Shown here: piece after piece, positions 1-46,923 of the stretch | How the letters are laid out: every line of letters begins with the position of its first letter | Position numbering within the stretch: position 1 is the stretch's first letter | NCBI GenBank assembly: GCA_964440465.1 | Contig: CAYTSI010000005.1 | Location: 151-64,150 of the forward strand | DNA: 64,000 bases | Origin: an uncultured Spirochaetales bacterium | GTDB lineage: Bacteria > Spirochaetota > Spirochaetia > SPDA01 > CAZSGZ01 | Direction of reading: 5' to 3' | Made by a program: the position numbers and the translations under genes | The notes under the pieces: model-generated | Databases searched by the model: none | What the model saw: only the letters and a program-made list of their open reading frames with translations | Told to the model about the DNA's origin: nothing

Positions 1-736
1 CTTCGGTAATGCCGCCGTCGGTGATAAAGGCGTCGAAATCTTTTAAATCGGCGAAGTGGGTTGAATGCACCTTCCCGATTTTTGATGAATCGGCAACGAG
101 GATCGAAGATATACTCGAATCGATAATCGCCTTTTTTGTTTCCATCTCGTACTGGTTTGGGCAGGTAACGCCTAGATCTTTGCTGATTCCCCCGGCGGAG
201 ATAAAAGCTTTCGACGCCCTGGACCGCCGTATCAGGGAGATCCCCTCGGGGCTTTCAAACATCATCGTATTTTCATGAAGATATCCCCCGGCGAAGATGA
301 CGCGGCAGTTCTTCTTTTTCTGCAATTCCGCGAGGATGTTGAAAGAGTAGCAGATTACCGTCAGCGGCAGGTCCGCGGGAATGGAGCGCGCGATGTATTC
401 GGTAGTGGACCCGGCATCGATGCTGATAACGTCCTCCGCTTCGATGAGGGACGCGGCGTACCGGCCGATGGCTGCTTTTTCTTTCGTCTGTTTCGATCCC
501 GCCGTGATAAGGGAATAACTGATTTCACCCGATGGCGGTCCGCTGTTCTGGGCCGGATTTAAGACCGCGCCGCCGTGAAGGAGCTGGATGTAGTTTTGAT
601 CCTCGAGTTCCTGCAGGTCCCGCCGGATAGTCATGTGGGAAACGCCGAGCTTGTCGGCAAGTTCGTTTACCGACGCGGCATTATAAATCCGGAGAATTTT
701 CAGTATTTCATCTAACCGTTCCTTTTTATCGGCCAT
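1..736 (-). CDS. DeoR-family transcriptional regulator (HTH + sugar-phosphate sensor domain), C-terminal end truncated by window edge
   Basis: Reverse-strand translation from ATG at 736: MADKKERLDEILKILRIYNAASVNELADKLGVSHMTIRRDLQELE... then DeoR C-terminal motifs (ISIDAGSTT, ILVADSSKIGK). Not in ORF track because it runs off the window. Divergent from BMC operon. Confidence 0.8.
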   Translation of the reverse strand, partial: MADKKERLDEILKILRIYNAASVNELADKLGVSHMTIRRDLQELEDQNYIQLLHGGAVLNPAQNSGPPSGEISYSLITAGSKQTKEKAAIGRYAASLIEAEDVISIDAGSTTEYIARSIPADLPLTVICYSFNILAELQKKKNCRVIFAGGYLHENTMMFESPEGISLIRRSRASKAFISAGGISKDLGVTCPNQYEMETKKAIIDSSISSILVADSSKIGKVHSTHFADLKDFDAFITDGGITE

Positions 737-751
737 TTCCCCCGCCTTTAC

Positions 752-781
752 TTGACAAAAATGTATTATGGAATGTAAAAT
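752..781 (+). promoter_or_regulatory. Candidate sigma70-like promoter for BMC operon (TTGACA-18 nt-TAAAAT)
   Basis: ttgaca at 752-757, taaaat at 776-781, in AT-rich divergent intergenic region upstream of first shell gene. Confidence 0.3.
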
Positions 782-792
782 AACTATCAATA

Positions 793-829
793 TATGTTAA
801 CAAAATACCATCGTTATGTTAAAATTATA
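793..829. promoter_or_regulatory. Direct repeats TATGTTAA(C/A)AA(A/T)ATA spaced 22 bp; candidate operator (DeoR-type regulators bind direct repeats)
   Basis: tatgttaacaaaata (793-807) and tatgttaaaattata (815-829) between divergent deoR and BMC operon. Confidence 0.2.
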
Positions 830-860
830 ACGTAAAACCAAGAAAAAGAAAAGGGAAGGG

Positions 861-1508
861 ATGAAAATTATGAATAATATTGATTTACGGACCTATATCT
901 ACTTAGATTCACTGCAGCCGCAGATGGCATCGTATATATCCACCATTTCCCGGGGATATTTTCCGGTGGCAGGTCAGGCGTGTATGGTCGTGGAGATCTC
1001 GCCGGGTATCGAGATCAACCGGCTGACGGACATCGCTTTAAAAGCGACGAACGTACGGCCTGGAATACAAATCGTCGAGCGGCTGTTCGGGCTCTTAGAG
1101 CTCCATTCCGACAGTCAGGCCGACGCGCGGCAGTCGGGGGAGTCGATCCTGAAAGAGCTCGACTTAACCGAAGCGGACAGGATGAAGCCGACGGTACTGA
1201 CCAGTCAGCTGATAAAAAACGTGGACGACCATCACGCTCAGCTTATCAATAAAGTGCGCTACGGCAACATGATCCTCCGGGGGGACACCCTCTATGTACT
1301 GGAGCTGCAGCCGGCGGGATATGCCTATTACGCCGCGAACGAGGCGGAAAAGGCCTCGCATATAAATATTATCAACGTGCAGGGCTACGGCAGTTACGGC
1401 CGTATTTATATAGCGGGACCGGAAGCGGAAGTTCTGGTCAGCCAGCAGATTGTTGAATCCCGCCTTTTGTCGTTAAGCGGCAGGGAAGCGGGCGGTAAAA
1501 AAGAATAA
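861..1508 (+). CDS. BMC shell protein, tandem permuted BMC-T (PduB/EutL-like)
   Basis: 215 aa, two-domain; C-terminal half aligns to EutL permuted BMC domain (GDtlYvLelqPagYayyAaneaeKAshi...RIYIAGPEAEV vs EutL GDpmaYLvapPleatYgidAalKSAdvq...fLTGSQAA). GGAAGGG RBS. First gene of shell operon. Confidence 0.55.
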   Translation: MKIMNNIDLRTYIYLDSLQPQMASYISTISRGYFPVAGQACMVVEISPGIEINRLTDIALKATNVRPGIQIVERLFGLLELHSDSQADARQSGESILKELDLTEADRMKPTVLTSQLIKNVDDHHAQLINKVRYGNMILRGDTLYVLELQPAGYAYYAANEAEKASHINIINVQGYGSYGRIYIAGPEAEVLVSQQIVESRLLSLSGREAGGKKE

Positions 1509-1536
1509 CTAAAAGAATAACTAAAAGAATAACTAG
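1501..1536 (+). repeat. 12-bp tandem repeat AAGAATAACTAA x3 giving three in-frame TAA stops between BMC-T and BMC-H
   Basis: aagaataactaa aagaataactaa aagaataactag; first TAA is the stop of the 861..1508 ORF, followed by AGAGGAG RBS of next gene. Confidence 0.6.
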
Positions 1537-1547
1537 AGGAGAAAAAA

Positions 1548-1856
1548 ATGGCAGAGGTATTTGAAAACGCATTGGGAATGATCGAAACAAAGAGCTTCGC
1601 CGCGATGGTTGAAGCATCGGACGCCATGGTCAAGGCGGCAAGGGTTGAACTGACGAACTGGGTCAACACAGGCGGCGGTTATGTAACATCCATCGTCCGG
1701 GGCGATGTCGCAGCGGTACGGGCGGCCTTAGACGCGGGCGGCCGGGCGGCTGAAAAAGTCGGTGAACTGATCAGCGTTCATATTATTCCCCGTCCCCATG
1801 ACAATGTGGACAGCGCGCTTCCGTTGGGACGGACACCGCAGGGCGGAAAGAAATAG
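1548..1856 (+). CDS. BMC-H hexameric shell protein (PduA/EutM family)
   Basis: ALGMIETKSFAAMVEASDAMVKAARVEL...GGGYVTSIVRGDVAAVRAALDAG...GELISVHIIPRPH is the canonical BMC-domain signature. Confidence 0.9.
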   Translation: MAEVFENALGMIETKSFAAMVEASDAMVKAARVELTNWVNTGGGYVTSIVRGDVAAVRAALDAGGRAAEKVGELISVHIIPRPHDNVDSALPLGRTPQGGKK

Positions 1857-1860
1857 GTAG

Positions 1861-2160
1861 ATGGTACTCGCGAAAGTAGTCGGAACGGTTGTAGCTACCC
1901 GAAAAGAGCCGAAGATCGAAGGGATAAAATTCCTGCTGATAGAAAAACTGGACCCGGCAACCATGAAGGGAAAAAAAGACTTTCTCGTGGCCATGGACAG
2001 TGTCGGCGCCGGTCCCGGAGAGGTTGTCTTTTACGTGTCCGGAAGTTCGTCGAGAATGACCGCGACGACGGAGGGCAAACCGAGCGACGCGACCATAACG
2101 GCGATCGTGGACGTAATCGAAATGGACGGGAAGACCGTTTATCACAAGGACAGGCCTTAA
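1861..2160 (+). CDS. BMC-P pentameric vertex protein (EutN/PduN/CcmL family) paralog 1
   Basis: [15 protein letters not shown]...KFLLI....[23 protein letters not shown] motif pattern of EutN/CcmL fold. Confidence 0.85.
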
Positions 2161-2163
2161 GCG

Positions 2164-2451
2164 ATGATTTTTGCACAAACTGTGGGAACGGTGGTGAGCA
2201 CCGCCCGAAGCGATGAGATAGAAGGGGCGAAATTCCTTTTAGTGCGGGAATGCAGCTACAAAGGAGAACTTTCTGACAATTACATGATCGCCCTCGACGC
2301 GGTGCAGACCGGCCCGGGAGAGATGGTCCTCATTGCCCAAGGCAGTTCCTGCCGTCAGACGGAAAACACCTTCCAGAAGCCGGTGGATGCCCTGATTGTG
2401 GGAATCGTCGATTCCATAGACGAGGGAGGGGACCTTGTCTTTAGAAAGTAA
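2164..2451 (+). CDS. BMC-P pentameric vertex protein paralog 2
   Basis: MIFAQTVGTVVSTARS...KFLLV...ALDAVQTGPGEMVLIAQGSSCR. Confidence 0.85.
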   Translation: MIFAQTVGTVVSTARSDEIEGAKFLLVRECSYKGELSDNYMIALDAVQTGPGEMVLIAQGSSCRQTENTFQKPVDALIVGIVDSIDEGGDLVFRK

Positions 2452-3790
2452 GACCGCTGTCCGTCTCGCGGAGGCGGTCCGGGAGGCGGGTATCGTCGGC
2501 GCCGGCGGCGCCGGCTTCCCCACCCATAAAAAGCTCGGCGGGACCTGCCGCACGGTAATTGCCAACGGAGCCGAGTGTGAACCCCTTCTGCAGAGCGACA
2601 AATACATTATGGAAACGGAGGCGGAGAAAATCGCCGCCGCCCTCGAGCTTGCGGTGAATGAACTGCGGGCGGAAGAGGGGATTATCGCGGTAAAGGAGAA
2701 GAACAGCCGGGCTGTGGAGCGGCTCGAAGCAGCGGCGGCATCAAGGGTTGCTCTGTCCCTCTATCACCTTGAAAACTTCTATCCAGCGGGGGACGAGCAT
2801 GTGTTAGTCCATGAGATAACCGGAAAGGTAGTGCCCGAGGGGGGTATCCCGATTGCCGTGGGTGTTGTTGTCCTGAATGTGGAAACGCTGTTGAACATCT
2901 GCAACGCGGTATATGAATCGGCCCCGGTCACCCTGCGCACCGTTACCTGTACGGGAGAGGTGAAGACGCCGAAGGTGCTGCGGGTTCCGGTCGGTACGGC
3001 CATGCGGGACGTAATTCATGAGTGCGGGGGTGCTCTGGTGGAAGAACCCGCTATAATCATCGGCGGACCGATGATGGGAAAGGTCACCACCGATGTAGAT
3101 ACGCCGGTTGATAAACTGACCGGCGGAATTATCGTTTTGCCGAGGGACCACGATTGCATTCAACGGAAAACACGGCCGTTAGAAGTGCAGGTGCGGCTCT
3201 CGCGGAGCGCCTGCTGTCAGTGCGTACTGTGCAGCGAGCTCTGTCCCCGGGAGATGCTCGGGCATAATCTGTATCCGCACTTAATTATGCGGCAGATCAA
3301 TTACGGTCTTGATTTGCCGGAAGAAGCGCTGGCAGCGGCGGCGCTCTGCTGTGAATGCGGAGTGTGCGAGGTGTTCGCGTGTCCTATGGGGCTTTCCCCC
3401 TCCTTTATCAACGGAATTATCAAACAGCGGTTTGCCGAGGGGGGGTACAAGCCGGAGTTCCCCGACAGGGAGCCTAAGCCGCATGAGATGCGGGAATACC
3501 GCAAGGTGCCGGCACAGCGGATAATAGGCCGTTTGCGGCTTAACCGCTACGACGAGCCGATGTATGACCGGGGAGGCGCCGTTACACCGGAACGGGTTGA
3601 ATTGCCGCTGCGGCAGCACATCGGGGCGCCGGCGGTGCCGGTGGTTTCCCCCGGGGCAGCGGTGAAACGGGGAGACTTAATCGGGGAAATTCCCGAAGGG
3701 AGCTTAGGGGCACGGGTGCACGCCTCGGTTACGGGGACCGTTACACTGGTGGAGGAAAGCCGGATACTTATTACGGCATCAGGGGCATAA
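2435..3790 (+). CDS. PduS-like / RnfC-like flavoprotein with two 4Fe-4S clusters (BMC-associated oxidoreductase)
   Basis: 451 aa; GAGGAGFPTHKK nucleotide-binding motif; CCQCVLCSELCP and CCECGVCEVFACP ferredoxin motifs; C-terminal RnfC-type barrel-sandwich domain. Same length and domain content as Salmonella PduS (from memory). Confidence 0.75.
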   Translation: MSLESKTAVRLAEAVREAGIVGAGGAGFPTHKKLGGTCRTVIANGAECEPLLQSDKYIMETEAEKIAAALELAVNELRAEEGIIAVKEKNSRAVERLEAAAASRVALSLYHLENFYPAGDEHVLVHEITGKVVPEGGIPIAVGVVVLNVETLLNICNAVYESAPVTLRTVTCTGEVKTPKVLRVPVGTAMRDVIHECGGALVEEPAIIIGGPMMGKVTTDVDTPVDKLTGGIIVLPRDHDCIQRKTRPLEVQVRLSRSACCQCVLCSELCPREMLGHNLYPHLIMRQINYGLDLPEEALAAAALCCECGVCEVFACPMGLSPSFINGIIKQRFAEGGYKPEFPDREPKPHEMREYRKVPAQRIIGRLRLNRYDEPMYDRGGAVTPERVELPLRQHIGAPAVPVVSPGAAVKRGDLIGEIPEGSLGARVHASVTGTVTLVEESRILITASGA

Positions 3791-3793
3791 CAT

Positions 3794-4345
3794 ATGGAAT
3801 ACAGCGTAATCGGAGTACTTGAATTTTCGGCAACGGCGGCGGGCATTCTGGCCTTAGACAGCATGGTGAAGGCCGCGCCGGTGAAAATTATCGACGCGAA
3901 AACGATTTGTCCCGGCAAGTTCTATATTATCGTTACCGGAGACGTTGCCTCGGTTGATGCCGCGCTGACGGCGGGCAAAAAAGCGGGCGAGGGGTACTTG
4001 ATCGACGAGCTCTTTATTACCAACCTGCAGGAGCAGGTAATTCCGGCCATTTTAGGAACGGTGGAAACGACGAAGTGGGAATCTTTAGGCGTTATCGAAT
4101 CGTTTTCCATTGTGTCGAGTATCGTCGCGGGGGATTTGGCGGCGAAAGCGGCGGCGGTGGAGCTGCCTGAAATCAGGCTTGCTACGGGAATGGCGGGTAA
4201 ATCGTATGTAAAGATGATCGGGACGGTGCATGAGGTGGAGGTCTCCATGAAGGCGGCGAAAGAGTATGTGGGAAAGCAGGGCCTGTTATGTAAGGACGTT
4301 ATTATTCCCCACGCGCACCCGGAAATGAAGCCGTTTATTTTATAG
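3794..4345 (+). CDS. BMC-T tandem shell protein, PduT-like (possible Fe-S binding pore Cys in CPGK)
   Basis: 183 aa, two BMC domains (GVLEFSATAAGILALDSMVKAA...; SLGVIESFSIVSSIVAGDLAAKAAAVEL...); size/organisation as PduT. Confidence 0.75.
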   Translation: MEYSVIGVLEFSATAAGILALDSMVKAAPVKIIDAKTICPGKFYIIVTGDVASVDAALTAGKKAGEGYLIDELFITNLQEQVIPAILGTVETTKWESLGVIESFSIVSSIVAGDLAAKAAAVELPEIRLATGMAGKSYVKMIGTVHEVEVSMKAAKEYVGKQGLLCKDVIIPHAHPEMKPFIL

Positions 4346-4369
4346 GCACGGCGGAGGTAGGATACAGAT

Positions 4370-5815
4370 ATGCAGATAGATGAAAAAACGATACGGACGG
4401 TTGTCGAAGAGGTGTTAAAAGAGGTGAGCGCGGCGGCGGTGTCGTCCGCCTCGCCGCCCCGGACCCCTTCCCCGGCAGCCTCCTCTACATATCAGGGCTC
4501 ATTCAGTACCATGGACGCAGCCGTGCGCGCGGCGCATCAGGCGCATCTGGATTTAATGAACACGACGCTGGAAATACGGAGAAAAATGATCGATGCCATG
4601 CGGGAGACCATATGGTCCAATCTTTTTGTCCTGTCAAAAAAAGCGGTGGAGGAGACCGGCTTCGGCCGCACCGACGACAAGGTGAAGAAAAACCTTCTCG
4701 CGGCGAAGATGACACCCGGTGTGGAGGATTTAACGCCGACATCGTATACGGATGACCACGGACTTACCCTGACCGAACTCGCACCCTACGGCGTTATCGG
4801 GGCGATTGCTCCGAGTACGAACCCGACGGAGACGATTATCAGCAATGCCATTGGAATGGTAGCAGGCGGAAACACGGCGGTGTTTGGTCCCCACCCGGCC
4901 GCGAAGGAAGTTTCGAAATATACCATCTGCTTGTTAAACACGGCCATTCAGAAAGCCGGCGGACCGGCAAATGTTCTTACAACGGTGGACGAACCGACCA
5001 TCGAGGCCGCCCAGACGATGATGGACCATCCTCTCGTTTCGCTCTTAGTCGTGACCGGCGGCCCGGGAGTAGTAAAAGAGGCGATGAAACGGGCGAAAAA
5101 GGTCATTGCCGCGGGACCGGGGAACCCGCCGGTGGTGGTGGATGAAACCGCGGACATCGTGAAGGCCGGGAAAGATATCGTCGCGGGCGCGGGTTTGGAC
5201 AACAACATCATCTGTATTGACGAGAAAGAAGTCCTGGCGGTGGACTCTATTGCCGATCAGCTGAAGGCGGAAATGAAGAAAAACGGCGCCTTTGAACTGG
5301 ACCGGCAGCAGGCGGAGGCCCTGACGAAAATCGTCATTTCCGATCCCGGACGGCCGGGGCATGAAGGAATGGCGAATAAAAAATACGTGGGAAAAAACGC
5401 GTCCGTATTGGCGGACCTCATCGGCCTGAAGGTCCCCGAAGATACGCGCATCCTCATTGCCGAAGTCGACCGCGACCATCCGATGGTATGGACGGAACAG
5501 CTGATGCCCTTTATTCCGCTGGTGCGGATGAAGAGCGCCGATGAGGCGATCGATTTTGCCGTAGAATGCGAACACGGGTTTCGGCACACGGCAAGCATGC
5601 ATTCGAAAAACATCGAGCGGCTCTCAAGGATGGCGAAAGTCATGAACTGTTCCCTCTTTGTAAAAAACGGTTCGAATTTTAACGGCATGGCCTTCGGCGG
5701 CGCGGGCTACACCTCCTTTACCATTGCCAGTCCCACCGGCGACGGCTTTACCCGGGCGAGGACCTTTACCCGGGAACGGCGGTGTTCGCTCATTGATTAT
5801 TTTCGGATTGTGTAG
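4370..5815 (+). CDS. CoA-acylating aldehyde dehydrogenase (PduP/EutE family) with N-terminal encapsulation-peptide-like helix and P/S-rich linker
   Basis: 481 aa; ALDH fold motifs (VVTGGPGVVKEAMKRAKKVIAAGPGNPPVVVDETAD, NNIICIDEKEV); N-term MQIDEKTIRTVVEEVLKEV followed by AAAVSSASPPRTPSPAASS linker. Confidence 0.85.
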   Translation: MQIDEKTIRTVVEEVLKEVSAAAVSSASPPRTPSPAASSTYQGSFSTMDAAVRAAHQAHLDLMNTTLEIRRKMIDAMRETIWSNLFVLSKKAVEETGFGRTDDKVKKNLLAAKMTPGVEDLTPTSYTDDHGLTLTELAPYGVIGAIAPSTNPTETIISNAIGMVAGGNTAVFGPHPAAKEVSKYTICLLNTAIQKAGGPANVLTTVDEPTIEAAQTMMDHPLVSLLVVTGGPGVVKEAMKRAKKVIAAGPGNPPVVVDETADIVKAGKDIVAGAGLDNNIICIDEKEVLAVDSIADQLKAEMKKNGAFELDRQQAEALTKIVISDPGRPGHEGMANKKYVGKNASVLADLIGLKVPEDTRILIAEVDRDHPMVWTEQLMPFIPLVRMKSADEAIDFAVECEHGFRHTASMHSKNIERLSRMAKVMNCSLFVKNGSNFNGMAFGGAGYTSFTIASPTGDGFTRARTFTRERRCSLIDYFRIV

Positions 5816-5840
5816 GTTAAGGAAAATAGGAAGTGATGGA

Positions 5841-6113
5841 ATGAAATTAGGGAAAGTAATCGGAACGGTGGTGAGTACACAAAAGGTGGAGTCCTTCGAG
5901 GGGGTAAAGCTTCTTTTAGTACAGCCGTTAGATGAAAATTACGACGAGAAAGGCGGACCCTTAGCGGCGTGTGATACCGTTCAGGCGGGAGTTGGAGACA
6001 TTGTCCTTTATGAAGGCGGCCGGGAAGCCGCCCTGACGCTGGAAAACTGGTACAATCCGTCGGACGCGGCGGTAATGGCTATTGTCGACAGTACAAACCT
6101 GGAGGCAACCTAA
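5841..6113 (+). CDS. BMC-P pentameric vertex protein paralog 3
   Basis: MKLGKVIGTVVSTQKVESFEGVKLLLVQPL...CDTVQAGVGDIVLYEGGREA; start chosen at ATG 5841 (track ORF 5724 overlaps ALDH). Confidence 0.85.
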   Translation: MKLGKVIGTVVSTQKVESFEGVKLLLVQPLDENYDEKGGPLAACDTVQAGVGDIVLYEGGREAALTLENWYNPSDAAVMAIVDSTNLEAT

Positions 6114-6388
6114 TGCTTGTGGCTAAAGTAATCGGAACGGTTGTCGCCACGCGGAAGCATCCCGTTTTACAGGGGTATAAGCTGTTAATTGTGCAGCCGA
6201 AGGGGCCTGACGGAACGGATGCCGGCGGGATCGAGATTGCCCTCGATACGGTACAGGCAGGGACCGGCGAAACGGTGCTGCTGTTGACGGAGGGCAACTC
6301 TTCGAGGATGATTATCGGCGACGACATGGCCCCGGTACGTGCGGTGGTGGTCGGCATTATCGATGAGGTACAGTACGATGCAGTATAA
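6113..6388 (+). CDS. BMC-P pentameric vertex protein paralog 4
   Basis: [29 protein letters not shown]...ALDTVQAGTGETVLLLTEGNSSR. Confidence 0.85.
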   Translation: MLVAKVIGTVVATRKHPVLQGYKLLIVQPKGPDGTDAGGIEIALDTVQAGTGETVLLLTEGNSSRMIIGDDMAPVRAVVVGIIDEVQYDAV

Positions 6389-6929
6389 AAGTGATTCATC
6401 CATTGTACAAAATATCGTTTCCACGCTTCACACGGCCGCGGACCGGCCGCTTCCGGTGGAGAATACCGCGAACCAGGAAGACAAGGTCCTTCGGGTTGCC
6501 CTCGGGGCGGACCACGGCGGCTTCGAGGCGAAGGAGGCCCTGCGGGAGTATCTGAAGTCCTTAGGTTACCGTGTTACCGACGTCGGGACCGACAGTACCG
6601 AAAGCGTCGACTATCCCGATTTCGCGGTAAAGGTGGCGAAAAAAGTGGCCTCCGGGGAATGCGAGCGGGGAATTATGATCGACGGCGCGGGAATCGGATC
6701 GACGATGGTATGCAACAAGGTGCGGGGCATCCGCGCGGCGCTGTGCTACGATGTGAAAACAATCAGCAACAGCAGGGTGCACAATAACGCGAACGTGCTG
6801 TGCTTAGGCGGCCCCCTGCACGGCAGAGAGGAAATTTTTGAAATGGCAAAGCTGTGGCTAACCACGCGATTCGAGGGCGGCAGACACTGGCCGCGGATTA
6901 ATAAAATGATGGCAGTTGAACGAGGATAA
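6378..6929 (+). CDS. rpiB: Ribose-5-phosphate isomerase B (RpiB/LacAB family) with ~35-aa N-terminal extension (candidate encapsulation peptide)
   Basis: Core LRVALGADHGGFEAKEALREYLKSLGYRVTDVG...GIMIDGAGIGSTMVCNKVRGIRAALCYD...NANVLCLGG is RpiB; N-terminal MQYKSDSSIVQNIVSTLHTAADRPLPVENTANQEDK precedes the core. Start ambiguous (6339/6378). Confidence 0.8.
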   Translation: MQYKSDSSIVQNIVSTLHTAADRPLPVENTANQEDKVLRVALGADHGGFEAKEALREYLKSLGYRVTDVGTDSTESVDYPDFAVKVAKKVASGECERGIMIDGAGIGSTMVCNKVRGIRAALCYDVKTISNSRVHNNANVLCLGGPLHGREEIFEMAKLWLTTRFEGGRHWPRINKMMAVERG

Positions 6930-6941
6930 GAGGATAGACAG

Positions 6942-7820
6942 ATGGAGCAGAAAGATTTAGTAGAAAAATTGACGAAAGAGGTTATCGCGCGGCTTACGCA
7001 GGAAGGCAGCGGCGTTACAGGCGGCGCGCCTGCAGGCGGCAGCAGGACAACGGCCTCCGGCGGCGTCGGCGGCAATATGGGCGGCGGCCGGTCATCGGGC
7101 GCCGTACAGGAAGGCGGCTCGGCTCAGGCGGCCGGTTCCGGGGAGCTCCGTCCCTCCGACCTCAATAAATATATCGACCACACTCTGCTCAAACCGGAGG
7201 CGACGAAAGAGCAGATCGACAAGCTCTGCGATGAGGCGAAGGAATACTCTTTTTATTCGGTATGCGTCAACTCGAGCTGGGTGGAATACTGCGCGAAAAA
7301 ACTCCGCGGAAGCGGAGTCAAAATCAGTGCCGTAGTGGGGTTCCCCTTAGGCGCCATGGAAGGCCGTGCGAAGGGTTATGAAACAAGACACGTCGTCGAG
7401 GCGGGTGCCGATGAAATAGATATGGTGATGAACGTGGGCGCCCTGAAATCGGGAGACACGAAAAAGGTTGAAGAAGACATCCGCTGGGTCCGCCGGTCCA
7501 CCCGGCAGAAGACGGTTGTAAAAGTAATTATCGAAGCGGCCCTGCTGACCGATGACGAGAAGGTGCTCGCCTGTCAGATTTCGAAAAACGCCGGCGCCGA
7601 TTTCGTAAAAACGTCCACCGGGTTTGCAAAAGGCGGCGCCACCGCCGAAGATGTCGCCCTGATGCGGCGCACCGTCGGTCCGAAGACGGGCGTTAAAGCT
7701 GCCGGGGGGATCCGCTCCTTCGAAGATGCTGTGAAGATGATCAATGCCGGCGCGACTCGCTTAGGCACCAGTTCCAGCGTAGAGATTGTTACGGGGCAAA
7801 AGAGCACGTCGGCGTACTAA
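6942..7820 (+). CDS. deoC: Deoxyribose-phosphate aldolase (DERA) with N-terminal amphipathic helix plus ~50-aa Gly/Ser-rich linker (encapsulation peptide)
   Basis: Core YIDHTLLKPEATKEQI...SVCVNSSWV...VVGFPLG...DEIDMVMNVGALKSG...VKVIIEAALLTDDEKV...GADFVKTSTGF is DeoC; N-term MEQKDLVEKLTKEVIARLTQEG then SGVTGGAPAGGSRTTASGGVGGNMGGGRSSGAVQEGGSAQAAGSG. Confidence 0.85.
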   Translation: MEQKDLVEKLTKEVIARLTQEGSGVTGGAPAGGSRTTASGGVGGNMGGGRSSGAVQEGGSAQAAGSGELRPSDLNKYIDHTLLKPEATKEQIDKLCDEAKEYSFYSVCVNSSWVEYCAKKLRGSGVKISAVVGFPLGAMEGRAKGYETRHVVEAGADEIDMVMNVGALKSGDTKKVEEDIRWVRRSTRQKTVVKVIIEAALLTDDEKVLACQISKNAGADFVKTSTGFAKGGATAEDVALMRRTVGPKTGVKAAGGIRSFEDAVKMINAGATRLGTSSSVEIVTGQKSTSAY

Positions 7821-7907
7821 AGACCGGACACCAGCCTCCCAAAAAGGTCCGGCGAAACGCGAAACGCTAATATTGACAACCAGTATTCAAATCGCTATCG
7901 TTATCAT

Positions 7908-8276
7908 ATGGGGACGTTTCATATCAGCTGTAAAGTAGAAAACCATATTGACCGCGGGAAAAATACTACAGTTAAAAACCTATTAGTAGACACCGGAAGC
8001 GGATTTACCTGGCTCCCCGCCTCGGAACTGGAGAACATCGATGTTGCCCGTGAGAAAAAAGATCTGCCTTTTATTATGGCAAACGGTCAAAGGATTACCA
8101 GGGACGCCGGCTTCGCGATCATCCGTGTAGAAGACCATTTCACCATTGATGAGGTTGTATTCGCGGAGGAAGGGGACTTGCTGCTGTTAGGCGCCCGCAC
8201 TTTAGAAGGACTGAACCTCCGGGTCGATTCGGTCCGGAAGAAACTCGTGGCCGCCGGACCGCTCCCGGCCGCGTAG
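7908..8276 (+). CDS. Retropepsin-like (clan AA) aspartic peptidase domain protein
   Basis: LLVDTGSGFTWLP contains the D-T/S-G catalytic motif in a ~120-aa single-domain protein typical of bacterial retropepsin-like proteases. Confidence 0.55.
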   Translation: MGTFHISCKVENHIDRGKNTTVKNLLVDTGSGFTWLPASELENIDVAREKKDLPFIMANGQRITRDAGFAIIRVEDHFTIDEVVFAEEGDLLLLGARTLEGLNLRVDSVRKKLVAAGPLPAA

Positions 8277-8533: not shown

Positions 8534-9682
8534 ATGAATAGAGAACGAAAAAAAAGGCGGACACTAAAAAAGAGCGGGCCGATGATGTCCCGCCTGTACG
8601 GAGACACCGGCGTTAACGTTTCCGCGTTAGGTTTCGGCGGGATGCGGTTTGAGAAACCGGACGATATCGAGCATTCCGCCGAGACGGTGTTCCACGCCTT
8701 CGAGCGGGGGATTACCTATTTCGATACGGCGCCGGGGTATTTCGACGGTAAGTCGGAGGAGGCCGTCGGTACGGCGGTAAACGAGATGAAGAAAACCGGC
8801 AGGCCTTTTTATATATCCACGAAATCAAACAAGGCGGACGGTGCCGTGGTCCGGAAAGAGCTGGAAGAAAGCCTGAAGCGGCTGAATCTCGACTGTATCG
8901 ATTTTTATAACTGCTGGTACGTACTGACATTAGAGGATTGGGAAAAACGGAAAAACGGCGGGGCAGTGGAAGCAATTCTAAAGGCGCGGGACGAGGGGCT
9001 TGTCCGCTTTCCGGTATTTTCCACCCACCTTCCGGGAGACGCGGTACGTACGGTCATTGAAGAGGGATATTTCCGCGGCGTTACCCTCGGCTATTCGGCC
9101 ATCAATTTTCCCTACCGGGAAGAGGGGATACGGGCAGCCGGAGAGAACAATCTCGGTGTTGTCGTTATGAACCCCTTAGGGGGAGGAACAATTGTAAACA
9201 ATGCCGATGCCTTTCAATTTATCAAACGGGACAGCAAACAGACCGTTTTAGAGGCGGCCCTTCATTTTCTCTGGGCCCACGATGAAATTACGGTCGCGTT
9301 AGTAGGATGCAGGAACAAGTCCGATGTGGACGATGCCGCTGCCGCCGCGGCATCGTACGTACCCTATTCGGACGAAGATATCTCTAAAATAAAGAAGAAC
9401 ATTACCCGGGACTTCAACCAGCTGTGTACAAGCTGTACCTACTGTGATGTTTGTCCCGAAGACATCCCTGTCTGGAAGTTTGTGGAAACTGCAAACCATG
9501 TTATTTTAGGCTCTTCCGCGTCACTGTCCGGACGACTGAAATACTACTGGGGGGCTGATCCGACGGCCATGGAGCGGTGTATCCGGTGCGGGCAGTGTGA
9601 AAGTGCCTGCACCCAGCATATACCGATTATGGAACGGTTTGAGATGCTGAAAACAGCATTGACGGAGGAACCTACAAAGTAA
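8534..9682 (+). CDS. Aldo/keto reductase fused to C-terminal 2x[4Fe-4S] ferredoxin domain
   Basis: AKR N-terminal region (GFGGMRF..., DTAPGY) and C-terminal CTSCTYCDVCPEDIP / CIRCGQCESACTQHIP cluster motifs; GAAGGAA RBS before 8534. Confidence 0.75.
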   Translation: MNRERKKRRTLKKSGPMMSRLYGDTGVNVSALGFGGMRFEKPDDIEHSAETVFHAFERGITYFDTAPGYFDGKSEEAVGTAVNEMKKTGRPFYISTKSNKADGAVVRKELEESLKRLNLDCIDFYNCWYVLTLEDWEKRKNGGAVEAILKARDEGLVRFPVFSTHLPGDAVRTVIEEGYFRGVTLGYSAINFPYREEGIRAAGENNLGVVVMNPLGGGTIVNNADAFQFIKRDSKQTVLEAALHFLWAHDEITVALVGCRNKSDVDDAAAAAASYVPYSDEDISKIKKNITRDFNQLCTSCTYCDVCPEDIPVWKFVETANHVILGSSASLSGRLKYYWGADPTAMERCIRCGQCESACTQHIPIMERFEMLKTALTEEPTK

Positions 9683-11046: not shown

Positions 11047-12174
11047 ATGTTCCGTATGAACCGGTTTACGATGTGCGCGGCAGCCGACTTTCACCTCGGC
11101 ATGAGGTTCTCTTCCTACCCTTCTGTGCAAAAGGAGCTGATACGGGCGAGGTTTTCCGCGCTCCGGCGGGTGGTGGACCGGGCAAATGCCGAACAATGCG
11201 CTCTTCTTGTGATAGCGGGAGATTTGTTTGATCGTATCAACATCCCGGTAAAAGAAGCGGAGGAAGTGATAGAAATTCTCGGCGGATTTCAGGGTGATTG
11301 CATTGCGGTTTTACCGGGTAACCACGATTATTTCAGCGGTGCAAAGAGCGGTGTCTGGAAAACCGTTACGGAGAATGGACCGGATAACCTCCTGCTGCTG
11401 TCGGAGAAGAAAAAATACTACCTCAATGATTTCCATTTGCCGGTTGTTTTATATGCCGGCCCATGCAGTTCTCAGCACGGACGTGAAAACGCGGTATCGT
11501 GGATCGGCCCGGCGGACCGAAAGGACAGAGAATTGTTTCATATAGGGGTAGCCCACGGCAGCATTGAGGGGATTTCCCCCGACGTAACCAAGCAGTATTT
11601 CCCGATGAACAGGAAGCAGCTGGAGTCCGCCGGTCTCGATTTGTGGATTATCGGGCACACCCATATACCCTTCCCGGAGCGGGAGGAAACGGTATCGCCT
11701 TTTATTATACCCGGCACACCCGAACCGGACGGTTTTGATTCCGGCGGGGACGGAGCTGCTTGGATTATTTCGGTAAATGATAACAAGGCGGTACACAAGA
11801 AGCGGTTTACTGCCGGCTCATACCGTTTTACGCGGCAGATAAAGGAAATACACTCCGCCGGGGACATTGAGGAGGCGGTCCGTGAAATGAGCGGAACGGC
11901 CGGTCCTTCCGTTCTCCTGCAGCTGAAACTGCGGGGCACTCTTGTGAAGGGCGATTTTCCCCTTTTAGGTCCGGCAATGGAAGAATTGGCACAGCGGTTT
12001 TTTTATACGGATATTGATACGGAAAGCGTGAAAACAAAGCTGACCCCCGGAGAAATCGGCAATGAATTCCGGGAAGGGACCTTTCCCTATATTCTTCTTT
12101 CCCGTCTCTCCGAGTACGGCGATACCGAGGCGCTCGAGCGGGCTTACAGGATCCTAGAGGAGATGAGGAAATGA
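11047..12174 (+). CDS. sbcD: SbcD/Mre11-like calcineurin-family metallophosphoesterase (DNA repair exonuclease, YhaO-like)
   Basis: Phosphoesterase motifs AAADFHLG, VIAGDLFD, LPGNHD, GHTH; overlaps downstream ATPase gene by 4 bp. Confidence 0.7.
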   Translation: MFRMNRFTMCAAADFHLGMRFSSYPSVQKELIRARFSALRRVVDRANAEQCALLVIAGDLFDRINIPVKEAEEVIEILGGFQGDCIAVLPGNHDYFSGAKSGVWKTVTENGPDNLLLLSEKKKYYLNDFHLPVVLYAGPCSSQHGRENAVSWIGPADRKDRELFHIGVAHGSIEGISPDVTKQYFPMNRKQLESAGLDLWIIGHTHIPFPEREETVSPFIIPGTPEPDGFDSGGDGAAWIISVNDNKAVHKKRFTAGSYRFTRQIKEIHSAGDIEEAVREMSGTAGPSVLLQLKLRGTLVKGDFPLLGPAMEELAQRFFYTDIDTESVKTKLTPGEIGNEFREGTFPYILLSRLSEYGDTEALERAYRILEEMRK

Positions 12175-14651
12175 TCATCCGGGACCTGCACATTCATACC
12201 TTCGGGGACTTTCAGGATGTCCGGCTGCAGTTTGCAGACGGGTGTAATATTGTCCTTGGTGAAAATGAAGCGGGTAAGTCAACGGTTTTCAATGTAATCG
12301 ATCATCTGCTGTTTACTCCCGTCAAGCTGACGAAGCGTGAAATGGAAAAAAGCTTGAATCGATGGTTTCCCGTTGGAGGCGGGGATACGTTGAGCGCGGA
12401 ATTATCTGCCGAACTCGGGGACAGAGCTGTTCGGTACTTCAAGTGCTGGGGCGGGAATCCGGAAGGAACAATTCGATTTTCACCGGGAGGGACCTATTCG
12501 GGCGATGATGCCCTCGCTGCGGAAACGGAAAAATTGTGGGGATACTCTCCGGAGACGGTGCGGCAGGTTTGCCTGCTGCGGCAGAGTACCCTCGCGGATA
12601 CGCTGCCTTCCTACCAGAATTCGAAGGAGGTATTGCAGTCTCTTACCGACATCCTGCAAAATTCTTTAATAGAAGGCGGCGGTATTTCCACCTCCGGTTT
12701 TATTGAAACTCTCCGGGACCGGTACAGCTTGTTTTTTTCAAGATGGGACAGAGACCGGAACTATCCGGAAAAAAACAGAGGGATTGAAAATCCATGGTCG
12801 GTAAACGTGGGTACGGTTTTGAAATGGTGGTATGAAATGAAGCGGGCCGAGTTAGAGGTCCGGCGGGTAGAGCAGCTGGAAGACTCAATATGTTTACTGC
12901 AGAGCAGCCAAAAAGAAAAAAAGAAGGAAACGGCAGCTCTCGAGTCGTTTCTTTCTGCCTTTGAGACAGTCTACAACACTGCCGGAGACAGAAAAAGCCT
13001 GGAATTGGAACTGCGGGAAATTATCGGTACGATGGAGCGGATAAAGAAAGACAGTCAATCCTGGGGACGGGGGAGGGATGGTCTTGAACAGGCGCTCCGG
13101 GAGCGGAAAGAAGGGAACGAAGAACTTGGAAAGCTCCGCGGGCGGATCGAAAGCAGGGATGAAGTAACGGCGAAACGGAAACGGTTCGAAAAATATCGTC
13201 GGCTGCTGGAGGTGAAAACAAAACTCGACGCCCTGGAGGCAAAGCTCAGAGAACAGCCGGCAATACCGGAAAAGGATTTGCAGGCACTCCGTGAATCAAG
13301 GTTGGCAATTCGGGAAAGTGAGGTGAAACTGCAGTCCGGAACACTCTTTGCACAGCTGACCGCGAAGAAAAATATCAGTTTTTCCTATACTCCCGGATTG
13401 GGCACTGAAAAGCGGCGTGACCTTATGGCAGGGAATTCGCTTGAAATAACGGCGGAAGGGAAAATTCGGCTGAGCCACGAAGACTGGGAGCTGGATGTTT
13501 ATTCGGGAAACGAAGATTACGAAACCGTCAAAAAGGAGCTGGAGGCAGGCAAAAAAGAGTTTAACGCTCTCTGTGAGAAGTACGGTGTTGTTTCCGTCGA
13601 GGAAGGAGAAGCACAGCGGAAGGTTTATACTGATCTGGAAGGGGAAACGGCACGGGCGCGGAAACAATTTTCCGAGGAACGCGGAGAGGACTCTTTTGAA
13701 GCCCTGAAGAAGGAAGTCGAAAGTTTTGGGGCCCTTCCTGAGGAAACCGACAGTACCGAGCTGGGAAGAGAATACGGTTCTCTCAATGAACGGCTTGCCG
13801 CGCTTGAAAAAACAATACAGGAACATCGGGAACGGTTGTCGTATTTGGAAGAGACATATGGGACGGAGGAAAAGCTTCTGGACATGCTCGCGGACCTCCG
13901 CGGCCGGCAGCGGGACTTGGAGAAACAAGTGGCTGCTCTTCCGGAAATTCCTGACCCCTTCGAAACGGCGGAAGAATTTCTTGAGGCATACAGGGAAAAA
14001 CAAAGAAAAAGGGAGACGCTCCGTCAGGAAATATTTGAGTTAGATAAGGCGGCCGCCCTTGCGGTAAAAGACCTCCCGGACATCTCCCTCGAGGAGCTCG
14101 AAGCGGACGCTGAAGCCGCGCGGCGGCGTTTTCAATCCGCGCTTTCGGAGGGGGAGACAATCGGCCGGATTCTCGAGACAGCGCTGCGGATCCAAAAAGA
14201 AATTCAGGAGAACCCCTATACCGCCTTTATGGAGGCGGCGGAAGCAAACCTTAAAAAAATGACCGGGCAGAGGCTGCAGTATAAAAGCAGATCAGGCGGG
14301 GGGGACGGTCAGGCAGCGGCCCCTTTTCACGGTGATGTTAGAAACAGCCGGGGAGAAATTCTGGCGTACGGACAGCTTTCAGGCGGAACGAAAGACGCGG
14401 TTTCTCTAGCCGTCCGGCTGGCAATGGCGGAGTATTATCTGAAAAATAAAGCAGGGTTTCTCCTCTTTGATGATCCCCTAGTGGAAATGGACCCGCGGCG
14501 CCAGAAGGCCGCCGCCGAACTGCTTTCCGAAACCGCCCGGCGCTACCAGTCGATAATCTTTACCTGTCATCCCCACATGCGCGATTTATTCCCGAATGCC
14601 AATGTAATTGAGCTGCATCGGGACGGGGAACGGAGGCGTGTTAAATTTTAA
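12171..14651 (+). CDS. sbcC: SbcC/Rad50-like ABC ATPase with long coiled coil (YhaN-like)
   Basis: Walker A GENEAGKST near N-terminus, ~600 aa coiled-coil, C-terminal LSGGTKDAVSLA signature and LLFDDPLVEMD Walker B/D-loop. Confidence 0.75.
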   Translation: MIIRDLHIHTFGDFQDVRLQFADGCNIVLGENEAGKSTVFNVIDHLLFTPVKLTKREMEKSLNRWFPVGGGDTLSAELSAELGDRAVRYFKCWGGNPEGTIRFSPGGTYSGDDALAAETEKLWGYSPETVRQVCLLRQSTLADTLPSYQNSKEVLQSLTDILQNSLIEGGGISTSGFIETLRDRYSLFFSRWDRDRNYPEKNRGIENPWSVNVGTVLKWWYEMKRAELEVRRVEQLEDSICLLQSSQKEKKKETAALESFLSAFETVYNTAGDRKSLELELREIIGTMERIKKDSQSWGRGRDGLEQALRERKEGNEELGKLRGRIESRDEVTAKRKRFEKYRRLLEVKTKLDALEAKLREQPAIPEKDLQALRESRLAIRESEVKLQSGTLFAQLTAKKNISFSYTPGLGTEKRRDLMAGNSLEITAEGKIRLSHEDWELDVYSGNEDYETVKKELEAGKKEFNALCEKYGVVSVEEGEAQRKVYTDLEGETARARKQFSEERGEDSFEALKKEVESFGALPEETDSTELGREYGSLNERLAALEKTIQEHRERLSYLEETYGTEEKLLDMLADLRGRQRDLEKQVAALPEIPDPFETAEEFLEAYREKQRKRETLRQEIFELDKAAALAVKDLPDISLEELEADAEAARRRFQSALSEGETIGRILETALRIQKEIQENPYTAFMEAAEANLKKMTGQRLQYKSRSGGGDGQAAAPFHGDVRNSRGEILAYGQLSGGTKDAVSLAVRLAMAEYYLKNKAGFLLFDDPLVEMDPRRQKAAAELLSETARRYQSIIFTCHPHMRDLFPNANVIELHRDGERRRVKF

Positions 14652-15836: not shown

Positions 15837-16343
15837 TCAGCGTAACTTCATCCAAACCCGCCGCAGGAAATCATTAGGCGGCCGCTCTAATATGTCCAGC
15901 TGTCCCTTATAGATCAAACTCATGCCGCTGTATTTATAGTCTGTCGCGTATTGGACCATTTTGGCGCGAACTGGGTTATTGGCTATATAAACAAATGTGG
16001 CAAGATATTGCAGGAAACTGTGAATTATTTTGCTTTTAAACCGCTCGTTCCATACATGGCCGGTTAGCCCAAATGTTTTATTATACTGCATCGCGAAAAC
16101 GCTTAAAACCCATTGCATAATGGCCGATAAGCTCTCATTATTCAGCGGTTTTATGATGAAATGGTAATGGTTTCCCATTATACAGAAGTTTTTGATAGTG
16201 AAGCGGTATTTTTTTTTTGCCCTTCTGATGACTTCCATAAACATTTCTTGTATTTCCGGTGTTTTGAATATTACTTCTTTGCGGTTCACTCTGGAAACTA
16301 CGTGATAACTTGCCCCATACTGTAATTGCCTTGGTTTTCTCAT
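15837..16343 (-). CDS. IS200/IS605-family HUH Y1 transposase homolog, possibly a REP-associated tyrosine transposase (RAYT)
   Basis: 168 aa; HUH motif GNHYHFII; YHVVSRVNRKEVIF N-terminal motif; VWNERFKSKIIHSF...YIANNPVRAKMV C-terminal similarity to IS200 TnpA/RAYT. No obvious IS ends identified. Confidence 0.6.
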   Translation of the reverse strand: MRKPRQLQYGASYHVVSRVNRKEVIFKTPEIQEMFMEVIRRAKKKYRFTIKNFCIMGNHYHFIIKPLNNESLSAIMQWVLSVFAMQYNKTFGLTGHVWNERFKSKIIHSFLQYLATFVYIANNPVRAKMVQYATDYKYSGMSLIYKGQLDILERPPNDFLRRVWMKLR

Positions 16344-23192: not shown

Positions 23193-23561
23193 ATGCCGTT
23201 TAGTATTTTGGAAAAAGACAGGAAGACATTTGAATATTTTAAAAAATACGTTGAGTTTTTAGAGCTCGAGGAAAACACCTGTCTCATCCTTGACAACAAG
23301 ATACAATCCGAGGAAATCCAGGAGCATTTGCGCCGGACCGGTCATAACAGCGGAATGGATGGAAGGAAAAAAGAGATTATTTCACAGTGGATTAAAGAAA
23401 ATGCCCGTCCGTTCCGGGATTATCTGAACAGCATCAAACTTGCCTATGTCGTATGGAAATGCATGGGCAAAGAATGGTCCGAGATAACCTGGGAAGAGTT
23501 CTTCAAAATCGAAGAGCGCCTCAATTCCCTCAAGTACAAATGTCTCGATACGATTTTTTAA
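23193..23561 (+). CDS. Hypothetical protein
   Basis: 122-aa ORF, no recognisable motifs. Confidence 0.3.
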   Translation: MPFSILEKDRKTFEYFKKYVEFLELEENTCLILDNKIQSEEIQEHLRRTGHNSGMDGRKKEIISQWIKENARPFRDYLNSIKLAYVVWKCMGKEWSEITWEEFFKIEERLNSLKYKCLDTIF

Positions 23562-25399: not shown

Positions 25400-25444
25400 A
25401 GGACATCCTTTCTTACATATAGAATTTTTAATATATTGATTAAT

Positions 25445-25720
25445 TTACATCGATTTTATCAATTGTTCAAGTCTGTTTTCGGTAATAATTGAACCGGCAC
25501 TGACCTGTTTTCCCCGAACAAGAAGGGCGGGAAACTGATGAATTTCAACACCGGGTACCGTGCATTCTTCATCCGCCCGGAGTTTTACATGATTTATTTG
25601 TATATCGGGATGTTTGGTCTGTATCTCACGCAATACTTCACGAACAATTTGATCGCTAATTGTGCAGGAAGCGCAATGCTGGTCTTTTGAAACAAGGGTA
25701 ATGGTAACAGGTTCAGCCAT
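25445..25720 (-). CDS. Small thioredoxin-fold redox protein (CxxC)
   Basis: 91 aa, HCASC motif and FPALLVRGKQVSAG resembling small redox-active disulfide proteins. Confidence 0.45.
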   Translation of the reverse strand: MAEPVTITLVSKDQHCASCTISDQIVREVLREIQTKHPDIQINHVKLRADEECTVPGVEIHQFPALLVRGKQVSAGSIITENRLEQLIKSM

Positions 25721-28249: not shown

Positions 28250-28388
28250 TATATTCTCCTTACATATGAATATACAAAAATTGCCGCTCTGGAGAAAGGA
28301 TGATCTTTCTAATTTTTGTAATTCCTCTTCCTCCGTCCCCTCATTTATGGTATTTTAGCTGTGGACCCGCAAAATAGAAGGAGAAGAT

Positions 28389-29285: not shown

Positions 29286-29299
29286 CAAAAGGACGGAAC

Positions 29300-46832: not shown

Positions 46833-46864
46833 AACCTTCCCCCAATTAACGCGGCCGCCCAAAA

Positions 46865-46880
46865 CCTCTATATATAGTGG
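46865..46880. promoter_or_regulatory. NrdR-box-like palindrome 1
   Basis: cctctatatatagtgg, matches consensus acaCwAtATaTwGtgt class (AT-rich core palindrome). Confidence 0.45.
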
Positions 46881-46907
46881 AATTAGCCGCAACAATATCA
46901 CTATATC

Positions 46908-46923
46908 ACACCATATATTGTGT
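46908..46923. promoter_or_regulatory. NrdR-box-like palindrome 2
   Basis: acaccatatattgtgt, near-perfect match to NrdR box consensus; 43 bp centre-to-centre from box 1. Confidence 0.55.

Follow-up and report, generated by a model that had tools for sequence, protein, structure and literature searches.

A 64,000-nucleotide stretch of DNA from an uncultured Spirochaetota bacterium (positions 151 to 64,150 of contig CAYTSI010000005.1, called the window in the following) carries an eleven-gene operon at 861-7820 on the plus strand, in which genes for the shell of a bacterial microcompartment (BMC) stand together with those of DERA (deoxyribose-5-phosphate aldolase), an RpiB-like protein and a CoA-acylating aldehyde dehydrogenase (AldDH). 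Which kind of compartment do these genes encode, which reactions would run inside it, and how would CoA and NAD+ be turned over behind the shell? We conclude that the locus is almost certainly a sugar-phosphate-utilising (SPU) microcompartment operon of the SPU2 subtype with a divergent DeoR-family repressor. For its function the best-supported reading, which we consider likely, is the catabolic SPU model with electron export through MNdh (metabolosome NADH dehydrogenase) and its shell partner BMC-T(SE), and with CoA exchange through the gated shell trimer BMC-T^dp.

Gene content and subtype of the locus

The SPU class received its name in 2014, on the basis of eight loci (PMC4207490), and was expanded in 2021 to more than 280 loci from 26 phyla, divided into seven subtypes (Sutter et al., Nat Commun, PMC8217296). 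In the 2021 catalogue SPU2 comprises 53 loci, hosted mostly by Bacteroidetes and Spirochaetes and also by Atribacteria and others. Its shell set comprises BMC-H in one or two copies, a triplet of BMC-P with one additional copy, a BMC-T^dp of the CcmP-like kind and a BMC-T^S, which is accompanied by PduS in roughly one locus out of four. The only enzymes are the AldDH, the PF01791 aldolase and the PF02502 protein, while phosphotransacylase (PTAC), alcohol dehydrogenase and triosephosphate isomerase (TPI) are missing in most loci (PMC8217296). The window locus fits each of these features, with a CcmP-like BMC-T^dp, a BMC-T^S, four BMC-P, a single BMC-H and neither PTAC nor alcohol dehydrogenase nor TPI. 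For the assignment we relied on the genes present, their conserved order and the taxonomic affiliation of the relatives, and the per-subtype counts were taken from the main text of Dwyer et al. 2024 and the supplement of the 2021 catalogue. A preliminary description of the sequence had already placed the gene set in the SPU class, and the set agrees with SPU2 feature for feature; the description had also called it unusual, whereas it is the standard inventory of the 53 catalogued SPU2 loci. Compared with this subtype (PMC8217296; recurated in PMC11585597) the enzyme set, the one or two BMC-H, the four BMC-P, the pair of BMC-T^dp and BMC-T^S and the N-terminal encapsulation peptide of the AldDH are shared and nothing substantive differs. 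The window locus is among the SPU2 loci that have PduS, about one in four, and it has a single BMC-H where several Spirochaetaceae relatives have two.

The gene inventory was compiled from the open reading frame (ORF) listing and profile searches with Pfam and NCBIfam, and every gene named in the preliminary description was recovered in its place by Pfam, PDB or NCBIfam matches. Most family matches of the operon genes have E-values of 1e-24 to 1e-52, which rules out chance matches. The intergenic gaps range from -17 to +39 nt, consistent with a single transcription unit. The proteins of the window are found verbatim in a public contig, with generic annotations only, and in an assembly of a sequencing run.

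One BMC-H, two BMC-T and four BMC-P genes lie within 5.5 kb, a clustering of PF00936 and PF03319 domains that defines a BMC locus. When the shell ORFs were searched with profile models, a check that had been proposed beforehand, the BMC-H, the tandem-domain BMC-T and the four BMC-P matched BMC families, and the product of the first gene (861..1508, plus strand) was identified via CcmP structures instead. Its match to the Pfam BMC model is marginal (E=0.009, below the gathering score). Over its full length it matches the beta-carboxysome protein CcmP (PDB 4ht5 and 5lsr, E=1e-71 for both), and it also matches the Haliangium HO-5816 trimer (E=6e-66); with the NCBIfam CcmP model it reaches 283 bits, below the carboxysome cutoff of 340. 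The matches to CcmP and HO-5816 identify it as a permuted double-layer BMC-T^dp, a CcmP-like gated trimer of tandem-domain subunits. It had previously been listed simply as a BMC-T; it remains a shell protein, now of this more specific type. In an ungapped alignment to 5lsr, Glu73/Arg74 lie opposite Glu69/Arg70 of CcmP, which are presumably the pore-gating residues, and the VERLFG motif is retained in the relatives.

The shell hexamer BMC-H (1548..1856, plus strand; PF00936, E=2e-28) carries the standard KAAR and PRPH interface motifs in its translation. The four BMC-P pentamer genes, all on the plus strand, are arranged as two adjacent pairs and their products share 37-45% identity with each other. 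The first pair is formed by paralogue 1 (1861..2160; PF03319, E=1.5e-25) and paralogue 2 (2164..2451; PF03319, E=1.9e-24), which are 45% identical. In the second pair, paralogue 3 (5841..6113; PF03319, E=5e-26) has an AGGAAG 7 nt upstream of its ATG and the same gene boundaries in an independent gene call, and it is followed by paralogue 4 (6113..6388; PF03319, E=1.6e-26).

The gene order (DeoR), (BMC-H), BMC-T^dp, BMC-H, BMC-P, BMC-P, (PduS), BMC-T^S, AldDH, BMC-P, BMC-P, RpiB-like protein, DERA, in which brackets mark optional genes, is found in at least 15 loci spanning Spirochaetota, Atribacteria (Caldatribacteriota) and Planctomycetota. The nearest species-representative genome, a metagenome-assembled genome (MAG) of an uncultured Spirochaetales bacterium (locus L001), shows 84-96% protein identity. 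It is followed by many MAGs of Spirochaetaceae, Rectinemataceae and other Spirochaetota, then by Caldatribacteriota and then by Planctomycetota. For accessory genes of these related loci only ORF clusters confirmed by Pfam were used, as antisense ORFs in GC-rich DNA made the greedy clustering noisy. TPI is present in L013, L020, L033 and L048, and a PduL-type PTAC in L023, L033 and L048.

Divergent from the operon lies the gene of the DeoR-family regulator (1..736, minus strand; start codon at 734-736), which is truncated at its C-terminal end by the window edge. Over the 245 residues that are visible it matches the Pfam families HTH_DeoR (E=9e-16) and DeoRC (E=7e-48); together with the plus-strand genes of 861-7820 these matches bear out the arrangement of a divergent DeoR gene and a single-strand operon that had been described before. 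A DeoR homologue adjoins the operon in 13 related loci. The divergent regulatory region between the two (737..860) is 124 nt long and AT-rich. A consensus scan detected two sigma-70-like sites toward the operon, TTGACA-18-TAAAAT (752-781, plus strand; 11/12 matches) and TTAACA-17-TAAAAT (797-825, plus strand; 10/12 matches), as well as promoter-like sites on the minus strand at 822-794 and 800-772. In addition, a repeat search found an imperfect inverted repeat, ATGTTAACAAAA / TTATGTTAAAAT (794-805 / 814-825), which is a candidate operator.

DERA, aldehyde dehydrogenase and the RpiB-like protein

The last gene of the operon (6942..7820, plus strand; PF01791, E=6e-14) encodes DERA, the signature enzyme of SPU loci. 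The protein scores 282 bits with the deoC equivalog of NCBIfam (cutoff 117), which covers residues 74-283, and aligns to PDB 5dbu (E=1e-79) only over residues 73-289; its catalytic domain comprises residues 73-292. The motifs EIDMV (158), FVKTSTGF (221) and GVKAAGG (250) are intact and carry the counterparts of Asp102, the Schiff-base Lys167 and Lys201 of E. coli DERA. Ahead of the catalytic domain lies an extension of residues 1-72, in which an amphipathic helix-prone segment, EQKDLVEKLTKEVIARLTQ (about residues 3-21), is followed by a 50-residue linker of 35% Gly and 16% Ser. In a homologue scan with one genome per species, the alignment of DERAs outside BMC loci (Bacillus, Streptococcus, Brachyspira and others) does not begin before about residue 69, whereas BMC-linked orthologues align from residue 1 and have the N-terminal motif M-x-Q-x-E-L-[VI]-[DE]-K-I-T in common. 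An AlphaFold2 model from the single sequence is poor (mean pLDDT 48) and lends weak support with a helix at 3-23 followed by disorder. A PF01791 aldolase encoded in a shell locus, with an N-terminal extension absent from free DERAs, is what is expected of SPU. The statement in the preliminary description that no SPU substrate had been demonstrated experimentally is outdated, since the DERA of an SPU6 locus, expressed without its N-terminal extension, cleaves deoxyribose-5-phosphate in vitro with a Km of 0.104 (about 0.1 mM; Dwyer, Sutter & Kerfeld 2024, PMC11585597).

The AldDH of the PduP/EutE type (4370..5815, plus strand; PF00171, E=5e-33) reaches 646 bits with NCBIfam NF011927 (cutoff 403) and matches PDB 5jfl with E=4e-130. 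Its Cys282 lies in DNNIICIDEKE, aligned to DNNLPCVAEKE, at the position that we take to be the catalytic cysteine of the PduP/EutE family. The N-terminus has an amphipathic encapsulation peptide (about residues 3-19) and then a Ser/Ala/Pro linker. This segment has the highest helical hydrophobic moment of the protein and the helix is conserved across the relatives; an acylating PF00171 enzyme with an encapsulation peptide is a further trait of SPU loci. The preliminary description had proposed DERA and the RpiB-like protein as encapsulated cargo, and both of them, as well as the AldDH, have N-terminal extensions of the kind typical of cargo, which suggests that all three would be packaged.

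The gene of the RpiB-like protein (PF02502, E=1e-52), termed RPI in the SPU literature, lies within the ORF 6339-6929 on the plus strand and most likely starts at the ATG at 6378, with a GAGG 10 nt upstream, and not at the GTG at 6339, so that it spans 6378..6929. Its N-terminus has a short conserved amphipathic segment, SIVQNIVSTL, ahead of a linker. With the rpiB equivalog the protein scores 150 bits, just over the cutoff of 138.65. Compared with PDB 3ph3 it has IDGAG in place of ICGTG (Cys66Asp and Thr68Ala), and among 24 sampled BMC-linked RpiB-like proteins (the window and 23 homologues) the first exchange is found in all 24 and the second in 23. The binding residues Asp9 and His10 are present in 24/24, His99, Arg133 and Arg137 in 23/24 and His134 in 22/24; with Asn100 included, each of these seven positions is retained in 20 to 24 of the 24. 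The numbering and the roles of these residues follow E. coli RpiB as the reference; the numbering is self-consistent. In the window protein the residues of a functional RpiB are thus replaced, with Asp and Ala at 66 and 68 and Ser at the equivalent of the Mycobacterium-type Glu75.

A PF02502 protein with Asp for the catalytic Cys66 is again what marks an SPU locus, as all SPU RPIs carry this exchange (PMC11585597). The RPI of SPU6 showed negligible ribose-5-phosphate isomerase activity and formed a complex of about 1:1 with DERA (PMC11585597). The description of RpiB as a signature enzyme is not supported, given the replaced Cys66/Thr68 pair and the negligible activity of the assayed homologue; for the RpiB-like protein, a role as DERA's partner in packaging or binding is more likely. 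The published work on SPU RPIs mentions only the Cys-to-Asp change and the conserved His99. The catalytic pair is exchanged for another conserved pair and the binding pocket is kept, which would hardly be expected of a relic with a purely structural role; this pattern of conservation would fit a protein that is still under selection to bind a sugar phosphate. A step further, it might be no dead scaffold at all and have another catalytic function, such as the opening of the furanose ring, the handover of deoxyribose-5-phosphate to DERA or a reaction on a rare sugar phosphate, or it might act as a substrate-sensing subunit of the DERA complex. We regard this as rather unlikely.

The SPU6 enzymes of Chloroflexi bacterium GWB2_54_36 are the only SPU enzymes that have been characterised biochemically (Dwyer et al. 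2024). The window locus shares with SPU6 a DERA extension of about 70 residues, the Asp/Lys/Lys catalytic residues of DERA, an RPI with Cys66Asp and an N-terminal encapsulation peptide, and the adjacent position of the RPI and DERA genes. The SPU6 locus differs in having no PduS, a GntR regulator, a C-terminal encapsulation peptide on the AldDH, a BMC-T^dp of a different clade and three BMC-P, whereas the window has the MNdh/BMC-T(SE) pair, DeoR, an N-terminal AldDH peptide, the CcmP-like BMC-T^dp and four BMC-P.

Proposed electron export, cofactor turnover and rival explanations

The PduS-like flavo-Fe-S protein (2435..3790, plus strand) has 451 aa, the same length in an independent gene call. 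Its Pfam domains follow the order Complex1_51K (15-156, E=8e-43), SLBB (170-215), Fer4_17 (259-321) and RnfC_N (384-443), which is the circular permutation described for MNdh with RnfC_N at the C-terminus. The nucleotide-binding motif GAGGAGFPT is present, together with two cluster motifs of the type CxxCxxCxxx(x)CP (C260/263/266/270 and C305/308/311/316). Only 3 nt downstream follows the gene of the PduT-like BMC-T^S (3794..4345, plus strand), also written BMC-T^SE, a tandem BMC protein with two PF00936 domains (E=5e-37), which scores 108 bits with the NCBIfam model eut_PduT, below the cutoff of 250.3. Its pore motif C39-P-G-K is the predicted site of a [4Fe-4S] cluster on the trimer axis. 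The pair therefore has what defines the MNdh/BMC-T(SE) module: four domains with RnfC_N at the C-terminus and an adjacent trimer with the CP(G/S)K cysteine. CPGK is present in the BMC-T^S of the window and of 8/8 sampled relatives with a PduS homologue, and the pore cysteine is replaced (TPGK, NPGK or SQGR) in 6/6 sampled relatives that have BMC-T^S without PduS. This co-occurrence fits a functional coupling of the two proteins in a small and phylogenetically structured sample of mutually related loci.

In two of these eight loci, both from Spirochaetales, a PduS-like gene with fewer domains occupies the position of PduS (L002:2684-3964 and L011:5649-6827). Its product keeps only the region of the two [4Fe-4S] clusters (29% identity over about 160 residues), a NuoF-like FMN/NADH domain is not detectable in it, and the adjacent BMC-T^S is still CPGK. 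It may feed electrons into the same shell conduit as another kind of input protein.

The PduS of loci other than PDU has been renamed MNdh and its PduT partner BMC-T(SE) (Sutter et al. 2024 PNAS, PMC11626177). For the Clostridium pair, activity measurements, electron paramagnetic resonance, voltammetry and footprinting support a transfer of NADH electrons via FMN and three 4Fe-4S clusters to the shell exterior (PMC11626177). The pair in GRM1 of Clostridium botulinum shares with the window the four domains, the two 4Fe-4S motifs, the adjacent CP(G/S)K trimer and a locus with AldDH and without alcohol dehydrogenase. The difference lies in the metabolosome, which is SPU in the window and GRM1 in C. 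botulinum; the biochemistry comes from the GRM1 pair. Electron transfer across the shell by the PduS/PduT pair, which the preliminary description had offered as its own idea while leaving cofactor recycling open, is thus a published and partly tested model.

Absences were assessed by a Pfam scan of 14 ORFs of at least 90 aa in the first 17.7 kb and 29 ORFs of at least 150 aa in the rest of the 64 kb window. Among these larger window ORFs, PTAC (PF06130 or PF01515), iron-type alcohol dehydrogenase, TPI and acetate kinase were not found, in agreement with the earlier observation that the locus has neither phosphotransacylase nor alcohol dehydrogenase. As there is no alcohol dehydrogenase in the locus, NAD+ regeneration would have to rely on electron export through the shell, and as there is no PTAC, CoA turnover would have to rely on the gated pore. 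SPU subtypes without PTAC typically have BMC-T^dp, and an exit of acetyl-CoA through its pore has been suggested (PMC11585597).

In the catabolic model, deoxyribose-5-phosphate, a cytosolic product of deoxynucleosides, would enter the shell via the BMC-H pore or the gated BMC-T^dp. The encapsulated DERA would cleave it to glyceraldehyde-3-phosphate, which would exit to glycolysis, and acetaldehyde, which would be retained by the shell and converted by the encapsulated AldDH with CoA and NAD+ to acetyl-CoA and NADH. This sequence of reactions, outlined already in the preliminary description, is the published SPU model. NAD+ would be regenerated by the PduS-like MNdh, whose FMN and pair of [4Fe-4S] clusters would relay electrons from NADH to a further [4Fe-4S] cluster, in the BMC-T(SE) pore, and on to an outside acceptor, and acetyl-CoA and CoA would be exchanged via the large gated pore of the CcmP-like BMC-T^dp. 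The RpiB-like protein would most likely be a non-isomerising partner of DERA that helps to package the core and may still bind a sugar phosphate. The sequence itself shows which genes and domains are present, that catalytic and cluster-binding residues are retained, that the proteins have targeting extensions and that the synteny is conserved. For DERA activity and the DERA-RPI complex (PMC11585597) and for electron transfer by MNdh/BMC-T(SE) (PMC11626177) the evidence comes from homologues only, and we infer the direction of flux, the entry and exit routes, the external electron acceptor, the effector of DeoR and the assembly of the shell.

Several points weigh against the catabolic model. 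SPU biochemistry is limited to SPU6 enzymes in vitro and the organism of the window is known only from a metagenome contig; the model also leaves the role of the RpiB-like protein unexplained. A terminator scan detected no intrinsic terminator after DERA, with fewer candidates than in shuffled sequence, and folding of 7815-7910, 3' of DERA, gave nothing significant (z=-1.55), so that the 3' end of the transcript is undefined. Finally, the DERA reaction is reversible, as is that of acylating aldehyde dehydrogenases, and this leads to a reverse redox sink as proposed for Atribacteria (Nobu et al. 2016), in which acetyl-CoA would be reduced with NADH to acetaldehyde and DERA would condense it with glyceraldehyde-3-phosphate to deoxyribose-5-phosphate, storing or detoxifying the aldehyde. 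The reverse model was reported for syntenic Atribacteria loci (PMC6281690), which are among the closest non-spirochaete relatives of the window locus (L019 and L023), and the host is probably a fermenter, as judged from its class III ribonucleotide reductase and corrinoid methyltransferases. However, an NADH-oxidising MNdh/BMC-T(SE) in the same shell would compete with an NADH-consuming AldDH, the DeoR-type regulator and the ordinary deoC-type enzyme point to catabolism, and the sole published enzymatic test measured cleavage. We therefore consider a flux in this reverse direction improbable.

Slightly better odds, though still poor ones, attach to the idea that the physiological substrate is one or more other sugar phosphates, with DERA or its complex with the RpiB-like protein acting on another aldose phosphate and DNA-derived deoxyribose being at most one input. 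Two further points against the catabolic model feed this idea. Among the larger window ORFs, nucleoside phosphorylase, phosphopentomutase and deoxyribokinase were not found, so that the supply route of deoxyribose-5-phosphate is not visible there. Moreover, a class II aldolase gene (PF00596) directly follows DERA in L002, L003, L005, L006 and L011, and FGGY kinases and parts of sugar ABC transporters recur in the flanks of several related loci. Such sugar genes beside DERA suggest other sugar substrates in those genomes and hint at a role of some SPU2 compartments in other sugar pathways. The class II aldolase of L002 has an FGGY sugar kinase directly behind it (L002:8069-10572); a zinc alcohol dehydrogenase, a short-chain dehydrogenase/reductase and an aldose epimerase recur near related Spirochaetota SPU2 loci. 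The strong conservation of the sugar-phosphate-binding residues in the RpiB-like protein, despite its altered catalytic pair, would also suit another substrate. However, these extra sugar genes were not found in the window locus, its DERA is a deoC equivalog with all three catalytic motifs, and deoxyribose-5-phosphate is a substrate of the SPU6 orthologue, with a Km of about 0.1 mM. That the locus is a misread canonical PDU, EUT or GRM operon, or a decayed non-functional remnant, is the least probable reading by far and is excluded by the gene inventory. PduS-, PduT- and PduP-like genes do occur in PDU loci too, but diol dehydratase, ethanolamine ammonia-lyase and a BMC-type glycyl-radical enzyme were not found among the larger window ORFs; the class III ribonucleotide reductase, which lies 36 kb from the operon, is the sole glycyl-radical protein among them. 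In contrast to the Salmonella Pdu system (PduS, PduT, PduP), the window lacks B12-dependent diol dehydratase, PduL and PduQ among its larger ORFs; its aldehyde would come from an aldolase acting on a sugar phosphate, and it has a gated BMC-T^dp, which is missing from most PDU loci. Decay is contradicted by twelve intact and tightly spaced genes, by the preserved catalytic and cluster motifs and by the 84-96% protein identity with L001.

Neighbouring genes and significance

Directly downstream of the operon, at 7908-8276, lies an ORF for a 122 aa retropepsin-like aspartyl protease with its own promoter-like site at 7873-7901; its Pfam matches are below gathering scores. Some 700 nt downstream of DERA follows the gene of an aldo/keto reductase that bears a fused 4Fe-4S dicluster domain at its C-terminus (8534-9682); L002 has a 47%-identical copy, 2.7 kb downstream of its DERA. 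As a candidate for a hidden alcohol dehydrogenase of the compartment the window gene was rejected, since its product has no N-terminal amphipathic extension, since it has a separate promoter-like site and is separated from the operon by an unrelated small gene, and since L002 is the only relative with such a gene nearby. It probably has no part in the compartment. An IS200-like Y1 transposase (15837-16343, minus strand; PF01797, E=2e-15) is located some 8 kb downstream of the operon, beside a pair of SbcCD-like nucleases (11047-14651) and a nitroreductase-like gene.

NrdD, the class III ribonucleotide reductase, seems to be split (43692-46351, minus strand, with 42910-43671 and 46368-46964). 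An ORF of 708 aa covers positions 1-538 of the Pfam NRDD model, and a separate ORF of 178 aa, connected by an ATGA overlap, bears the C-terminal segment of the glycyl radical (TRIVGYY) and behind it some 120 more residues, which contain a CPNC motif and are possibly thioredoxin-like. Genes for a radical-SAM activase and NrdR flank the pair; the split may be natural or may result from an assembly frameshift. A set of corrinoid-related genes at 23558-30349 encodes a RACo-type reductive activase, a CobW GTPase, a fusion of an URO-D/MtaA-like methyltransferase with a thioredoxin-like part, a homocysteine S-methyltransferase and CobT, and an MttB-family methyltransferase gene lies apart from it at 60230-61654. 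These corrinoid methyl-transfer genes suggest anaerobic demethylation of a quaternary amine or methylamine. Furthermore, a bacterial alpha-2-macroglobulin of 1926 aa is encoded near a PBP1C-type penicillin-binding protein with transglycosylase, transpeptidase and BiPBP_C domains (47040-52820 and 56230-58476), with FtsH in between. The pairing of alpha-2-macroglobulin and PBP1C is known from other bacteria.

Within a subtype that is already catalogued, the locus is an intact and ordinary representative, and the mechanisms proposed for it can be found in the literature. SPU compartments are among the most widespread bacterial organelles, their transfer into Asgard archaea has been reported, and their presumed role is the recycling of sugar from DNA in sediments and soils. 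As a compact example of 7 kb that contains PduS, the SPU2 locus of the window would be a reasonable construct in which electron export and CoA turnover through a gated pore could be tested together. It also adds one more data point on the unexplained RpiB-like partner: if this protein were indeed active or sensing, SPU compartments would have a signature activity built from two proteins, which is as yet undescribed.

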